A stretch of 45,859 nt of DNA from a bacterium (lineage in GTDB: Bacteria; Patescibacteriota; Patescibacteriia; JAACEG01; JAGUWE01): positions 1-45,859 of the forward strand of contig JAZDOD010000004.1 in assembly GCA_043798995.1 (NCBI GenBank), read 5' to 3'. The notes below the pieces were generated by a model. It ran no database searches, was not told the DNA's origin, and saw nothing but the letters and a program-made list of their open reading frames with translations. The position numbers were made by a program, and so were the translations under genes. Shown here in pieces: positions 40,294 to 45,731 of the stretch (its first letter is position 1; each line of letters opens with the position of its first letter).

Positions 40294-41406
40294 TTACAAT
40301 TCCTTTTCTAGTTCTTTTAACAATTCTTTTTGTTTCTTGGTTAAATTCTTCGGCGTTTTGATGATAATTTCCACTATTTCATCGCCCCGGCCAAAGCCGC
40401 GTAAGCGCGGCAAGCCCTTACTGCGCAGGCGAAACTTTTCGCCGCTTTGCGTGCCTTCGGGAATAGCCAATTTTACAGATCCGTAAAGCGTTTCTATTCC
40501 AATTTTATCACCTAAAGCGGCTTGAGTAATATTAATAACTTTCTTGGTATAAATATCAGCTCCGCGGCGAATAAATAAAGGATGGGGCTCAAGATGAATA
40601 TTAACATATAAATCGCCGGCCGGCGAACCCTTCGGACCGGCTTCGCCTCCGCCTTGAAAGCGAATCACTTCACCCCCATCAATGCCGGCCGGTATATTAA
40701 TTTTAATTTTTTTAGACTCTTTAACAGTTCCTTCGCCCTGGCAACCTGAGCATTTTTTTTCCGGCACTTTCCCGGTGCCTAAACACTCCGGACAAACAGC
40801 GGTTGTTCTTATTTGGCCTAAGATTGTGGAGCGAACCTGATGAATTTGTCCCTGACCCTTGCAGGTCGGGCAAGTCTTGATGGAACTGCTCGGCTCGGCA
40901 CCGCTGCCGTCACAGCGTGAACAATTAACTTTTTTATAAAGCTCAATAATTCGTTCTGCTCCCCGCGCCACTTCTTCCAAGGTAATGGTTAAGTCAACTT
41001 CAATATTTTTACCGACACGTGATTGTCTTCTTTTTCCACCCATACCAAAAAAATCTGAAAAAACATCAGAAAAATCACCAAAATTTGAAAAATCAAATTC
41101 AACGCCACCGCGGCCGCCTTGGCGAAAGGCGTCGGTAAAATCCGAAAAATCGCGAAAACCTTCAAAACCGGAAAAACCGCCTCCGGCTTGAGCTTGTTCA
41201 AAAGTTTGCCCGAATTGGTCGTATTGAGACCTTTTTTGCGAATCAGAAAGAACCTGATAGGCCTCATTAATTTCTTTGAATTTTTTTTCATCACCGCCGG
41301 TTTTGTCGGGGTGATGTTGGTGAGCTAAGCGGCGAAAAGCTTTTTTAATTTCTTCCGCTGAAGCATTTCGCGAAACGCCTAAAATTTTGTAGTAATCTTT
41401 AGCCAT
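40294..41406 (-). CDS. dnaJ: Chaperone DnaJ
   Basis: [13 protein letters not shown]-rich region, four CxxCxGxG. Confidence 0.98.
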
Positions 41407-41428
41407 TATTTCCTTATTTATTTTATTT

Positions 41429-41588
41429 AAACCAACGAGTTGTCTAAAAAACCTTTGGCGAGACCGCTTAGTAAAATCATTATTTAAATATTAAAATTCT
41501 TGCGGTCGAGCCATAGAGCGAACGGAAAAAAATTTATTTTTTATAAAAAGTCTCTTGTGAGCGTGTTTTAAAGGCAACTCGCTGGTTT
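41429..41588 (+). repeat. ~160-bp structured element, copy 1 (MITE-like or ncRNA)
   Basis: Terminal IR AAACCAACGAGTTGTCT/AGGCAACTCGCTGGTTT; internal stems shared with copy 2. Confidence 0.8.
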
Positions 41589-43488
41589 ACTTTTTTTCTC
41601 CTTCCTCAAACTCCCCTTCTTTTGGCTCTTCTTTTTTGTCTTCGGCAGAAGTTTGACCCGAGGGTTGCTCCGAAGAGCTTTTTTCTTGGGCCGCTTTGTA
41701 CATTTCTGCTCCGACTTTTTGAATGGTTTGATTCAGGTCGGCTACTGCCTTTTTGGTTGAATCAATGTCATCACTATCTTTAACCTTTTTTAGCACCTCA
41801 ACTTTGGCCTCAACTTCTTTTTTAACGGTTTCTGAAACCTTATCACCGGCCTCGCGCAAAACTTTTTCTGTCTGAAAAACTAAAGTATCGGCTTCATTTT
41901 TAAGATCGGCTGTTTCCTTTTTCTTGCGGTCTTCCTCGGCATGAATTTCGGCCTCCTGTTTCATTTTTTCAATTTCATCCTTTGATAAGCCGGAAGAAGC
42001 GGTAATGGTAATTGATTGTTCTTTGCCTGTGGCTTTATCGCTGGCCTTGACATTTAAAATACCATTGGCGTCAATATCAAAAGTAACCTCAATCTGGGGA
42101 ATGCCGCGCGGCGACGGCGGAATACCGGAGAGAATAAAACGGCCTAAGGTTTTATTATTTTCAGCCATCGGACGCTCGCCTTGTAAAACATGGATTTCAA
42201 CCGAGGTTTGAGTATCAGCCGCGGTAGAAAAAATCTGCGACTTTGAAGTCGGGATGGTTGTATTTTTTATAATAAGCGGGGTGGCTACGCCGCCTAAAGT
42301 TTCAATACCTAAGGTTAATGGCGTCACATCAAGAAGTAAAACATCCTTTACCTCGCCTTGCAAAATCCCGCCCTGAATAGCCGCGCCAACAGCCACTACT
42401 TCGTCGGGATTGACTGAAATGTTTGGTTTTTTAGCGAAAAATTTTTCAACTGTTTTGAGTACTAAGGGCATTCGAGTCATGCCGCCGACCATCACCACTT
42501 CTTCAATGTCTGAAATGGTAAGCCCAGCATCTTTAAGAGCTTGACGGCAAGGTTCAAGAGTTTTTTCAACTAAATCACCGACTATCTCTTCAAGTTTGGC
42601 GCGGCTCAATTTCATCACTAAATGTTTTGGGCCCGCCGCATCGGTCGTGATAAATGGCTGATTAATTTCGGTTTCGGCCGTGGTTGAAAGCTCAATTTTA
42701 GCTTTTTCAGCCGCTTCTTTAAGCCGTTGCAGAGCCAATTTATCTTTGGCCAAATCAATGCCTTGATCGCGCTTAAATTCGGAAATTATCCAGCTAATAA
42801 TTCTCTGGTCAAAATCGTCACCGCCCAAATGAGTGTCGCCATTGGTTGATTTAACTTCAACTGTATCATCGCCAATATCCAGAATTGAAATATCAAAAGT
42901 TCCGCCGCCTAAATCATAGACCGCAATCTGCTGGCCTTTTTTCTTATCAAAACCATAAGCCAAAGCGGCCGCGGTTGGTTCATTAATAATTCGGCGGACT
43001 TTAAGACCGGCGATTTCCCCGGCATCTTTGGTAGCCTGGCGTTGAGAATCATCAAAATAAGCCGGCACGGTGATAACCGCTTCCTCAATTTTTTCACCCA
43101 GACGATCTTCAGTATCGGCTTTTAACTTTTGCAAAATCATAGCCGAAATTTCCTGCGGTGAATATTCTTTGCCGCCCATGACTACTTTAACCCCTTCGCC
43201 GGAACGGACAATTTTATAAGACATAAGTTTAATGTCCCGCTGAACCTCTATATCATCATATCTTCGGCCAATCAGACGTTTAACTGAAAAAATCGTATTT
43301 TCCGGATTAGTCACTGCTTGTCTTTTGGCAATCTGACCTACTAATCTTTCGCCGTTTTTAGAAATTGTCACCACCGAGGGAGTTGTTCGCGCTCCTTCTT
43401 TGTTTTCTAAAACCTTTGGCTCACCGCCCTCAACAATGGCCATAGCACTGTTTGTCGTGCCTAAATCAATACCTAAAATTTTTCCCAT
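41587..43488 (-). CDS. dnaK: Chaperone DnaK
   Basis: [34 protein letters not shown]. Confidence 0.99.
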
Positions 43489-43547
43489 AGAATTTAAATT
43501 TAATTATAATTTTAAAAAATGAATTAAGTTGCCAAACTAATTTTTTT

Positions 43548-43703
43548 TAGGCAAACTTGTCTGAAAAACCTTTGACGAGACCGCCGTAAAAATAAACTCT
43601 TAAAATGCCAGCTAACTGCGGTCGAGTCATAGAGCGAGCGTAAATTAATTTTCAATTCTTAAAAGAATTTAGTGCGAGCGTGTTTTGAAGGCAAGTTTGC
43701 CTA
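43548..43703 (+). repeat. ~156-bp structured element, copy 2
   Basis: Terminal IR TAGGCAAACTTGTCT/AGGCAAGTTTGCCTA; same internal blocks as copy 1. Confidence 0.8.
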
Positions 43704-43764
43704 GAAACTATCCAAAAAAAATAATTTGGCAACCTAAGGGCGAGAAAAAATTCTCGCCAACAGT

Positions 43765-44232
43765 TTACTTCTTTTTCTTTTTCGGCGTAACAATTTTGAC
43801 CGGTGTACTGCTTTTGCCCGCTTTGATTTTAATGGTTTTAGATTTGATTTGCGGAGCTTTTGGTAAAATAATCTTTAGCATTCCTTTGTCAAAATTGGCG
43901 GTTGCTTTATCAGCCAAAACTCGCGCCGGCAATGCCACTGAACGATAAAAACTGCCAGATCTGATTTCCTTGCGATAATAATTCTTTTCATCAACCTCGG
44001 TTTTCTTTTCTGATTTGCCGGAAATTGTCAAAACATCATTTTCAACCGCAATGTCAACATTTTCCGGATCAATGCCAGCCAAAGGCGTTTCAATTATAAT
44101 ACTTTCCTTGTCTTGATAAACATCAACTTGCGGCATAAAACCGCTGATTTGTGAATGCGCCATCTCCTCAAGCCATTTATCCCAATCCTCAAAGGGAGTT
44201 GGCCAACCCGGACGCCATCGTATAATTGCCAT
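43765..44232 (-). CDS. Small heat shock protein Hsp20/alpha-crystallin family
   Basis: PQVDVY, LAGIDPENVDI.VENDVLTISG, GSFYRSVALP, GMLKIILPK. Confidence 0.95.
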   Translation of the reverse strand: MAIIRWRPGWPTPFEDWDKWLEEMAHSQISGFMPQVDVYQDKESIIIETPLAGIDPENVDIAVENDVLTISGKSEKKTEVDEKNYYRKEIRSGSFYRSVALPARVLADKATANFDKGMLKIILPKAPQIKSKTIKIKAGKSSTPVKIVTPKKKKK

Positions 44233-44297
44233 ATATTTTCTCCTACGGAAGTAATTAAACAAACAATAATTACTTCTTAATTAATTTGAATTTTGCA

Positions 44298-44849
44298 TTA
44301 TTTTACTACCACCTTGGACGGCATTATTACTCTGCCGTGCATGGTGTAGCCGGCGCTGACTTCCTTAACAATCGTTTGTTCTTTTTCGTCTTTTTTGATT
44401 TCTTTATTTTCCTCAACCTCTTCTTCAATTGCTTCATGAAACTGGGGATTAAATTTTTCGCCTATGGTCTTTATTTCCTCAATGCCTAATTTTTTAAGCA
44501 GTTCAAAAATCTGATTATAAATGTGCTTGAAGCCAACAAAATAACTTTTGACTTTTTCATCTTTAATTTCTGACAAATGTTCAAAAGCACGCTTAAAATT
44601 ATTGACAATCGGCAGAAGCTGGATAATTAAAGCTACGCCGGCAAAACGGGCAAATTCTTCTTTTTCTTTTTCGGTGTCGCGCTTTAGGTTGATATAATCG
44701 GCCTTGGCTCTTTTCCAGCCGTTAAGATATTCTTCGGACTTTTTCTGACAGATTGCCAATTCTTGCTTAAGTTTTTCAACCTCATCTTGTTTATCGCTTG
44801 GCTGACTAACCTCCTCCGACATTTGATCTTTTTTTTCTTTATCGTCCAT
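44298..44849 (-). CDS. grpE: Nucleotide exchange factor GrpE
   Basis: RAKADYIN, LLPIVNNF.RA, FNPQFHEA, GY..HGRVI.PS.V.V. Confidence 0.96.
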   Translation of the reverse strand: MDDKEKKDQMSEEVSQPSDKQDEVEKLKQELAICQKKSEEYLNGWKRAKADYINLKRDTEKEKEEFARFAGVALIIQLLPIVNNFKRAFEHLSEIKDEKVKSYFVGFKHIYNQIFELLKKLGIEEIKTIGEKFNPQFHEAIEEEVEENKEIKKDEKEQTIVKEVSAGYTMHGRVIMPSKVVVK

Positions 44850-44933: not shown

Positions 44934-45614
44934 TTATTTTTCAACATAATTTTTAAAACATTTCACCAAAGCCAGATTTCTTTCATAATCCATTCTCATC
45001 GGACCAATTAAGCCCAGCAATGTTTTGTTGTTTGCCATGGTTAAAATGCTGGCAAGATAAGGGCTGAACGGATTAGTGTGGCCAATTGAAATTTCAATCT
45101 GGCTGCCTAGCTGATTATATAATTTAGCGATAATTTCGTCCAGATTATCAATCATACGGGAAAAATTTCTGACTAAATCAAATTCGCTAAATTCCGGCTG
45201 GGAAAATAAATTAAAAACACCCGTATAATAGGTATTATTTTTAGAAAAACTAATCACAATTGTTTGGCCTGATAATTGCGCGGCACTTTTAGCAACATTC
45301 TTGTAAACTTCCTCTTTATTTTTAGCAGATTCAATCCGTCTTATACTTTTCTCAAATTCTGCCGATAAATCTTTTTCTGATAAAAAATTATCCAAATAAA
45401 ACTGATAGCCCTTTTCGGTGGGAATACGGCCGGCTGAAGTATGGGGCTGATAAATATAGCCCCCGTCTTCCAATTTAGCCATTTCGTTTCTGACAGTGGC
45501 TGAGGAAAGATTACCGCCAAGTTTTCTAATCAAAAATTCAGAACCGATTGGTTGGGCTGATCTGACATAACTTCTGACTATTTCTTTTAAAATTTTTTGA
45601 TGCCGTTCAGTCAT
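44934..45614 (-). CDS. hrcA: Heat-inducible transcription repressor HrcA (short form)
   Basis: SSATVRNEM, QPHTSAGRIPT.KGY, IGPMRMDY; start ATG 45614. Confidence 0.95.
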   Translation of the reverse strand: MTERHQKILKEIVRSYVRSAQPIGSEFLIRKLGGNLSSATVRNEMAKLEDGGYIYQPHTSAGRIPTEKGYQFYLDNFLSEKDLSAEFEKSIRRIESAKNKEEVYKNVAKSAAQLSGQTIVISFSKNNTYYTGVFNLFSQPEFSEFDLVRNFSRMIDNLDEIIAKLYNQLGSQIEISIGHTNPFSPYLASILTMANNKTLLGLIGPMRMDYERNLALVKCFKNYVEK

Positions 45615-45629
45615 AGAATTTATCATTTT

Positions 45630-45668
45630 GTCATTGCGAGTTCCGCCAAGGCGGGACGCGGCAATCTC
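45630..45668. repeat. Half copy of the GTCATTGCGAG REP-like element in the hrcA leader
   Basis: GTCATTGCGAG-TTCCGCC-AA-GGCGGGA-CGCGGCAATCTC. Confidence 0.75.
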
Positions 45669-45704
45669 AATTGTTGAGTTATTCAATAATTTCATTTTAC
45701 CTAA

Positions 45705-45731
45705 TTAGCACTCACCTGTCAAGAGTGCTAA
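45705..45731. promoter_or_regulatory. CIRCE operator
   Basis: Perfect TTAGCACTC-N9-GAGTGCTAA upstream of hrcA. Confidence 0.97.

Follow-up and report, generated by a model that had tools for sequence, protein, structure and literature searches.

A repeated element in the dnaK operon

The window analysed here (contig JAZDOD010000004.1 of assembly GCA_043798995.1, 45,859 nt) belongs to a Patescibacteria genome of 765 kb, G000. It contains the heat-shock operon hrcA-grpE-hsp20-dnaK-dnaJ on the minus strand and, within that operon, two copies of an element of about 160 nt, at 41429-41588 and 43548-43703, both on the + strand and thus antisense to the operon. A preliminary description had claimed that these two stretches share a scaffold. 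A strict form of that scaffold, GAGACCGC-N25-45-GCGGTCGAG, matched the window exactly twice, at 41460-41510 and 43577-43626, both on the + strand, and had no match in any of 100 dinucleotide shuffles of the window. Mean column identity between the two copies is 82%, and their loops are unalignable. The right arm of copy 1, which ends at 41588, overlaps the dnaK stop codon, as had been described.

A third copy was detected on another contig of the same genome by relaxing the central 23-mer to three mismatches. It lies between the end of an upstream open reading frame (ORF), to which no identity was assigned, and a family-2 glycosyltransferase gene. A covariance model made from the three G000 copies (R1) was run against the whole of G000 and returned these copies only, at 166-180 bits, the next and unrelated match having an E value of 0.6. 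A second covariance model, R2, was made from five copies. The copies and their scores are:

41429..41588, + strand: copy 1, in the spacer between the dnaK stop and the dnaJ start; R1 178.8 bits, R2 158.9 bits
43548..43703, + strand: copy 2, in the spacer between the hsp20 stop and the dnaK start; R1 165.9 bits, R2 152.4 bits
G000:C1:14326-14486, another contig of the same genome: copy 3, with unrelated neighbour genes

The preliminary description had presented the two copies as bracketing dnaK. As the third copy lies between unrelated genes, this bracketing is incidental, and copies in relatives also stand beside unrelated genes.

Fold, selected strand and loops

The three G000 copies were folded together with RNAalifold, which gave 39 pairs, 13 of them changed on both sides; the compensatory stem changes proposed earlier were thus recovered. 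In the predicted fold a long closing stem leads to a three-way junction, from which two hairpins, P2 and P3, branch off. From the outside inwards, the closing stem has a copy-specific outer part, a conserved TTGTCY/RGRCAA helix, a 2x2 internal loop and an AAAAC/GUUUU helix. Tandem G.A/A.G mismatches, which had been noted in both inner hairpins, are indeed present in P2 and in P3, a few pairs from the junction, and in some copies in the closing stem too. The parts of the window copies are:

41429..41445, + strand: copy 1, 5′ arm of the outer closing stem, pairing with 41572-41588; unique to this copy except for the conserved TTGTCT
41446-47 and 41570-71, + strand: copy 1, 2x2 internal loop AA/AA; GA/GA in a strain variant
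41448..41452, + strand: copy 1, inner closing helix AAAAC, pairing with GTTTT at 41565-41569
41453..41516, + strand: copy 1, P2; stems 41453-41467 and 41502-41516 with tandem G.A, open A/U-rich loop 41468-41501 (34 nt)
41518..41562, + strand: copy 1, P3; stems 41518-41525 and 41555-41562 with tandem G.A, loop 41526-41554 (29 nt)
43570..43632, + strand: copy 2, P2; loop 43585-43617 (33 nt)
43634..43679, + strand: copy 2, P3; loop 43642-43671 (30 nt)
43529..43732, + strand: copy 2, extra outer inverted repeat, read from the sequence; 43529-43548 pairs with 43714-43732, with a 10-nt bulge at 43704-43713

With this extra outer repeat the whole palindromic unit of copy 2 measures about 204 nt; two copies in G001, a genome of the same genus, have a similar layer.

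On the + strand the three G000 copies fold with z scores of -4.8 to -6.2 relative to shuffles. In an alignment of ten Patescibacteria copies, which was fitted to the model and so favours structure in the figures for pairing and covariation, pairing is found in 98.1% of 370 cells, while shuffles give 69.8% and slid partners 35-44%. The covariation score, 0.740 as against 0.208, was reached in none of 500 shuffles. Double-sided changes occur in 29 of the 39 pairs across these ten copies. These results support the earlier proposal that structure rather than sequence is under selection.

The strand on which the fold is kept can be read from the exceptions to Watson-Crick pairing. Helix cells of ten non-redundant Patescibacteria copies comprise 331 Watson-Crick pairs, 22 G.U pairs and only 2 A.C pairs. 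Judged by GC skew, the + strand of the element is the C-rich strand at all three G000 sites, and replication skew would therefore favour A.C, not G.U. The G.U excess runs against this expectation, and pairing is therefore selected in a single-stranded + strand form, either RNA or single-stranded DNA. This agrees with the strand named in the preliminary description. The + strand folds better in 70 of 73 family members, by a mean of 11.4 kcal/mol, although these members are not independent, many being copies of few subfamilies; it is also favoured in eight of nine separate Patescibacteria or Aminicenantes copies.

A strain comparison, made for copy 1 only and with one contig (run X1), is consistent with this fold. 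The contig, about 95% identical, retains copy 1 with five differences, every one of them unpaired. Through two of these, 41446 A>G and 41570 A>G, the AA/AA internal loop becomes GA/GA, which is already the state of copy 2.

The loops had been described as unrelated in sequence and constant in length. Both statements stand for the window copies, but the second pair of loops measures 29 and 30 nt, not 31 and 32 nt, the stems being delimited differently here. The P2 loop ranges from 32 to 38 nt over 11 Patescibacteria copies. Ten of them have a P3 loop of 29-31 nt, the exception, in G052, having one of 24 nt. Both loops are A/U-rich and have no common sequence beyond a weak central UUAA. Their structure does not exceed that of shuffles (mean z 0.15 and -0.22), which rules out hidden hairpins. 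The GC-rich relatives described below have, at the loop positions, a short P3 hairpin and a structured P2 domain with conserved GCNNGG, of other lengths; the constraint on loop length is thus confined to the Patescibacteria form.

It had also been suggested, as a speculation, that the loops are cargo or guide slots. The six G000 loops were compared with their own genome, and their longest exact matches fell within the shuffle range except for one 15-mer of the first loop of copy 2, which matches a coding region on contig C5 without extension. Two loop 20-mers had no match among viral contigs. With no targets above chance, and with the same positions structured in relatives outside Patescibacteria, slots of this kind are without support.

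Distribution, gain and loss

The operon that holds both window copies has the following genes:

40294..41406, - strand: dnaJ (Pfam DnaJ, DnaJ_C, CXXCXGXG); context
41587..43488, - strand: dnaK (Pfam HSP70, E 5e-256); context only
43765..44262, - strand: hsp20 (Pfam); context; not between grpE and dnaK in the congener G001
44298-44849, - strand: grpE (Pfam)
44934-45695, - strand: hrcA (Pfam)

In G001, whose DnaK is 91% identical, both dnaK positions are empty: the dnaK-dnaJ spacer is 12 nt and grpE lies directly before dnaK (L021:1150-1520). The empty sites that the preliminary description had proposed to look for in related dnaK operons therefore exist, and hsp20, copy 2 and a GC hairpin are all extra in G000. 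The hairpin, GGCGAGAA-loop-TTCTCGCC at about 43738-43758, follows hsp20 between grpE and dnaK. Insertion into a pre-existing palindrome was considered and rejected, the dnaK-dnaJ spacer of G001 being without one, as is the place where its grpE adjoins dnaK.

G001 has two nearly identical copies at other sites. One is intergenic and has a small SecG-like gene on one side and a gene resembling the pyruvate-oxidoreductase gamma subunit on the other; the second lies in front of an acetyl-CoA-synthetase-like gene, all three genes being named from their translations. The site orthologous to copy 3 was sought in G001 without any DNA match. Two copies in G047 (L019:1421-1734 and L236:1421-1732) are about 97% alike inside but only about 60% alike in their outermost stems, where the changes are compensated; this points to gene conversion in the centre or to a core that was replaced within older arms. 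The copies of G158 have conserved stems and diverged loops. In G000 change has saturated the loops, whereas the core remains about 90% identical, so that either purifying selection acts on the core or the copies have separate sources. Thus the element is dispersed (three copies on two contigs of G000), is missing from the corresponding sites of G001, and occurs as near-identical duplicates in G001 and G047. Gain and loss have thus taken place at several sites, and the element looks to be, or to have been, mobile.

Patescibacteria genomes that have the element carry one to three copies. From the window copies to the next start codon the distance is 23-60 nt. An ORF was called 3′ of 12 Patescibacteria copies; it is on the opposite strand in ten cases, and seven of these ten copies end within 26 nt of the stop codon of that ORF. 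Closeness to genes is expected of any intergenic insertion in compact genomes, and the orientation bias is the informative part. Both neighbours were called for 27 metagenome copies, and in 26 of these one neighbour or both read away from the element, the orientations being (-,+) in 12, (-,-) in 11, (+,+) in three and (+,-) in one. Neighbours of other copies include genes for glycosyltransferases, acetyl-CoA synthetase, pyruvate oxidoreductase, RNase H and RNase Y, and gyrA.

Searches with covariance models, as the preliminary description had recommended for this genome and for other Patescibacteria, gave no copy in G000 beyond the three and a sparse set of relatives. R2 found clear members in four of 150 other genomes of the class, one of them partial (G111), and members in three of 150 genomes sampled from the phylum, one of them partial (G391), so that the element is in only 2-3% of sampled genomes. 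At the level of the order, weak matches in G002, G003, G007 and G008 (E 2.7e-4 to 0.098) were not counted as members: that in G008 is in coding-looking sequence and the others are partial, of 34-51 nt. A pattern scan of species genomes gave 86 stretches; four of the 80 loci fetched passed R2, the rest being chance matches in GC-rich genomes. The scan thereby added a Saccharibacteria assembly (68.8 bits with R2) and an Aminicenantes assembly (44.3 bits).

Metagenomes were scanned with the pattern AAAACC-N50-80-GAGCGA-N20-50-GAGCGTGTTTT, which gave at least 123 stretches; 80 loci with 82 matches were fetched and analysed. Ten loci without the fold were set aside by eye (L117, L142, L149, L153, L160, L173, L180, L182, L185 and L186). 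Relatives rich in GC are thus common in metagenomes. The remainder form GC-rich subfamilies, A with 37 unique sequences, B with 12, and the smaller C and D, which have in common invariant positions beyond the pattern and a compact P3 hairpin between two GAGCG boxes. The junction sequences AAAACC, GAGCGA and GAGCGUGUUUU are conserved across phyla. No match to the family pattern was obtained in a viral collection.

A further model, R3, was made from 22 sequences of subfamilies A-D and no Patescibacteria sequence. It found the copies of G001 and G089 with E values of about 6e-4. Its best match in the window was copy 1, on the correct strand, at 14.5 bits and E 0.11, and copies 2 and 3 were not recovered. 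It also uncovered a GC-type copy in the Saccharibacteria contig (50.3 bits), about 500 bp from the AT-type copy. We take the family to be real, with an indirect link between the window element and subfamily A. The stretch of about 500 bp between the GC-type and AT-type copies in the Saccharibacteria contig (L235:835-1333) is poor in ORFs and has at its end a terminator-like hairpin and T-run near 1229-1270; it could represent a further non-coding RNA gene.

Subfamily A bears the hallmarks of a miniature transposon (MITE). Nearly all of its copies end in a 22-bp terminal inverted repeat, and four copies, 232-237 bp long, have perfect 9-bp target duplications at their ends, where a reversed-flank control gave none. 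In 56 flanks of subfamily A, 14 of 17 outward sigma-70-like sites start 16-19 bp from the estimated end, on either side; insertion thus took place a set distance upstream of sigma-70-type promoters. In the class around the Aminicenantes assembly, 24 of 151 genomes contain the 22-bp repeat, and G249 has about 100 matches to it. The preliminary description had proposed looking for longer copies that enclose a transposase; no pair of terminal repeats 1-3 kb apart was present among the G249 matches listed, which were 100 of 101.

The element could not be assigned to a described RNA family. The whole window was compared with Rfam 15 at the gathering score, with no match except one tRNA elsewhere, and there was likewise none at E<=10 for 41300-43900 or at E<=1 for the loci of ten relatives. 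No description of the window-type element or of its GC-rich relatives was found in the literature searched.

Mobile repeat, RNA and other readings

The best reading, held with intermediate confidence, is that of a non-autonomous mobile repeat with a conserved + strand RNA-like core. A non-autonomous mobile element had been among the earlier proposals, and the empty sites in G001, the near-identical duplicates and the transposon hallmarks of subfamily A all favour it. The window copies would have arrived by transposition or a similar insertion, with an enzyme supplied in trans and not encoded in G000 now. The core may have been retained because a folded transcript of it, or less probably extruded single-stranded DNA, would bind a protein at the G.A motifs near the junction and would serve the element's own propagation or make the insertion harmless. 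Copies within operons would survive mainly when the weaker-folding complement lies in the mRNA. We propose that both dnaK copies are antisense to the operon because that orientation puts the weaker-folding complement into the mRNA.

Several observations weigh against a mobile repeat of this kind. The three G000 copies have no common terminal repeat; each has an outer stem that pairs although its sequence is unrelated to those of the others, and their ends have in common only the subterminal TTGTCY/RGRCAA. Target duplications were sought in 13 Patescibacteria copies and no clear one was found, the single hit being an artefact of the A/T palindrome at copy 2; copies 1 and 3, in AT-rich DNA, have at most TAAA-like repeats of 3-4 bp. 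Subfamilies B, C and D have paired arms and no target duplication. At E<=1e-5 R2 recovered 15 of the 80 metagenome loci; these belong to B, C or D or are singletons, and A is not among them. Intermediate subfamilies and the mixed model R3 are therefore what connects the window with A. The search for a cognate transposase was limited to the profiles NF033572 and PF01797, and the former, for the ISKra4 family, had no match in 11 genomes, including G000, the complete G089 and five high-copy genomes of the Aminicenantes class. Finally, a DNA cut-and-paste element needs no single-stranded fold that tolerates G.U, so the role of the core is not explained by transposition, and its strong conservation in genomes without the transposase would fit a host-useful RNA equally.

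Promoter-targeted insertion has been reported for the ISKra4, ISLre2 and TnGBS transposases, at 13-17 bp and in either orientation with symmetric repeats, according to excerpts of one study (PMC3942029), and this matches subfamily A, where a -35 box sits 16-19 bp from one or the other end. The window copies differ: they have no common ends and no promoter at the offset, since at 23-60 nt from start codons there is no room for one at 16 bp.

The closest described analogues are the structured intergenic repeats bcr1, enterobacterial repetitive intergenic consensus (ERIC) and Correia (CREE/NEMIS). The bcr1 repeat has a TTTAT-type duplication, and none is shown for the window element. In the portion of a review that deals with it, bcr1 of the Bacillus cereus group is a dispersed, mobile non-coding repeat of about 150 nt with RNA-level structure (PMC3184786). 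It belongs to another phylum, whereas the present core is kept across phyla and has tandem G.A motifs; the comparison is by description, not by sequence. As treated in the same portion, ERIC and Correia are short, imperfect, co-transcribed intergenic palindromes that vary between strains and are thought to act on transcripts or promoters, but they have conserved terminal repeats, TA-type duplications and a single hairpin (PMC3184786). The window copies have no common terminal repeat, a three-way junction and strand-specific selection.

Among the alternatives to a mobile repeat, a free-standing, trans-acting structured RNA gene on the + strand, with the junction and G.A motifs as a protein platform, two loops of about 30 nt displayed for pairing or binding, and mobility as a secondary matter of an RNA that rides on various carriers, is a tentative possibility. 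RNA typically shows such covariation and G.U bias, AAAACC, GAGCGA and GAGCGUGUUUU at the junction are kept across phyla, a Patescibacteria genome has only one to three copies, and the loops are unstructured and keep their length. A + strand promoter-like site at 43482-43510 also lies about 20 nt before the outer arm of copy 2, but promoter-like sites across the region are at chance level (seven found, 4.5 expected), and a conserved flanking promoter or terminator was not found. In four copies the 5′ end is only 23-44 nt from the neighbour's start codon, leaving no room for an external promoter. Such a gene also sits uneasily with positions that differ between congeners, with its presence in so few sampled genomes and with loops that lack targets.

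Somewhat more doubtful is the proposal that the three-way-junction core is a new structured RNA module, carried across phyla and with a job of its own such as protein binding or self-processing, its distal domains having been replaced in Patescibacteria by open loops of about 34 and 30 nt of free sequence that might serve as pairing or display segments. The carriers would be a miniature transposon in the Aminicenantes class and bare palindromic arms in Patescibacteria and the other subfamilies. One core keeps its junction sequences, G.A motifs and + strand pairing in ultra-small Patescibacteria and in bacteria of the Aminicenantes class, on carriers with different ends, and this argues that the fold itself has a function. 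A few cultivated groups are known to have dispersed non-coding repeats with structure, and a job has been assigned to few of their folds. If the function is RNA-based, the element would represent an undescribed RNA class. If the core is only transposon baggage, it would explain recurring structured intergenic elements in metagenome-assembled genomes, and would warn against reading such elements as local regulators of the genes they flank, here dnaK.

Action in cis from the minus strand is unlikely; in that case an intercistronic hairpin would control the processing, stability or translation of dnaK and dnaJ, for example as an RNase III site, stabiliser or thermosensor. A perfect CIRCE (controlling inverted repeat of chaperone expression) repeat lies at 45705-45731, 10 nt upstream of the hrcA start, so that the operon mRNA very probably includes both copies. 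Folding of the complement is still strong (-45.1 and -40.8 kcal/mol), the copies end 23-60 nt before the next start codon, and Correia and ERIC repeats are treated as RNA-level actors on expression in the relevant part of the review cited above (PMC3184786). Selection is on the other strand, however: in the mRNA the 22 G.U pairs become A.C mismatches and the G.A tandems become U.C. Other copies have unrelated neighbours, and the congener G001 runs the same operon without the element.

Further perfect or near-perfect CIRCE repeats lie at G000:C7:60623-60649 and G000:C9:11879-11905. The hrcA-grpE-hsp20-dnaK-dnaJ operon of this ultra-small genome appears to be under classical HrcA control.

Still less probable is a single-stranded-DNA substrate, either like an integron attC site or like the pair of end hairpins of IS200/IS605 elements, moved by a tyrosine recombinase or a Y1 HUH transposase. 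Likenesses to both systems exist. The fold is strand-specific and has two similar hairpins, each with a conserved mismatch; Patescibacteria copies show neither a terminal repeat nor a clear target duplication; and the folding strand is antisense to genes and is the C-rich strand in all three copies. Chromosomal integrons orient the bottom strands of their attC sites alike. An attC site also acts as a folded single strand in which structure matters over sequence, lies after ORFs and is recombined on the strand antisense to the ORF, but it conserves its outermost R boxes and needs IntI, whereas here the inner junction core is conserved. No integron integrase was found in G000 with TIGR02249, the best tyrosine recombinase reaching 139.7 and 96.7 bits where the cut-off is 265; matches below the cut-off likewise occur in all 14 control genomes. 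With variable outer stems and no recombinase above the cut-off, attC identity was rejected. Two pieces of the integron-integrase model (2-179 and 236-314) match a tyrosine-recombinase gene at G000:C1:20247-21050, at a distance of 6 kb from copy 3; the stretch of the model between them is missing, and the second piece has one TAA. This gene is either broken or simply Xer-like.

IS200/IS605 end hairpins and palindrome-associated elements also consist of two similar imperfect hairpins on one strand, without terminal repeat or duplication. They have no long closing stem, and the folding strand of the present element is opposite to the lagging-template expectation. The Y1 profile PF01797 had no match in G000, G089 or G052 and was present in G001, G047 and G158. 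A co-occurrence of Y1 with recent duplicates (three of three genomes with them, none of three without) was undone by the background of the class: 91 of its 151 genomes match PF01797, so its presence carries little information, and no element lies beside a Y1 gene. Without a linked Y1 transposase, and with PF01797 absent from G000, IS200/IS605 identity was rejected as well. Many of the PF01797 homologues are ORFs of 200-260 aa that contain only the C-terminal two thirds of the domain, and their commonness is unusual for such small genomes.

A TIGR-Tas guide array was also considered. TIGR-Tas systems are described, in the part of the report concerned with their organisation, as tandem arrays beside a Tas (Nop-domain) gene, with dual 9-nt spacers and box C/D motifs (PMC12045711). 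The present units are single, dispersed and beside housekeeping genes, in no array, and the identity was discarded.

A double-stranded-DNA operator or promoter module for heat-shock genes, such as an HrcA site with phased half-sites, is very improbable: a copy stands before each of dnaK and dnaJ, a promoter could fit into the A/T-rich spacers with their constant 29-34 bp, and weak -35-like hexamers lie at the element end, but canonical CIRCE repeats are elsewhere (45705-45731, C7:60623 and C9:11879), compensatory changes in arms 40 nt apart are unexpected for a protein site, other copies are not at heat-shock genes, and the congener is without the element. The CIRCE consensus, TTAGCACTC-N9-GAGTGCTAA as an inverted repeat, was sought in the element and is not present there.

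At the dnaK start, promoter-like hexamers occur on both strands within 43482-43535 around one common A/T-rich -10 region, TTCCCA-17-TATAAT on the + strand and TTGGCA-18-AATTAT on the minus strand. From its sequence, this pair could drive dnaK and, divergently, the + strand of copy 2.

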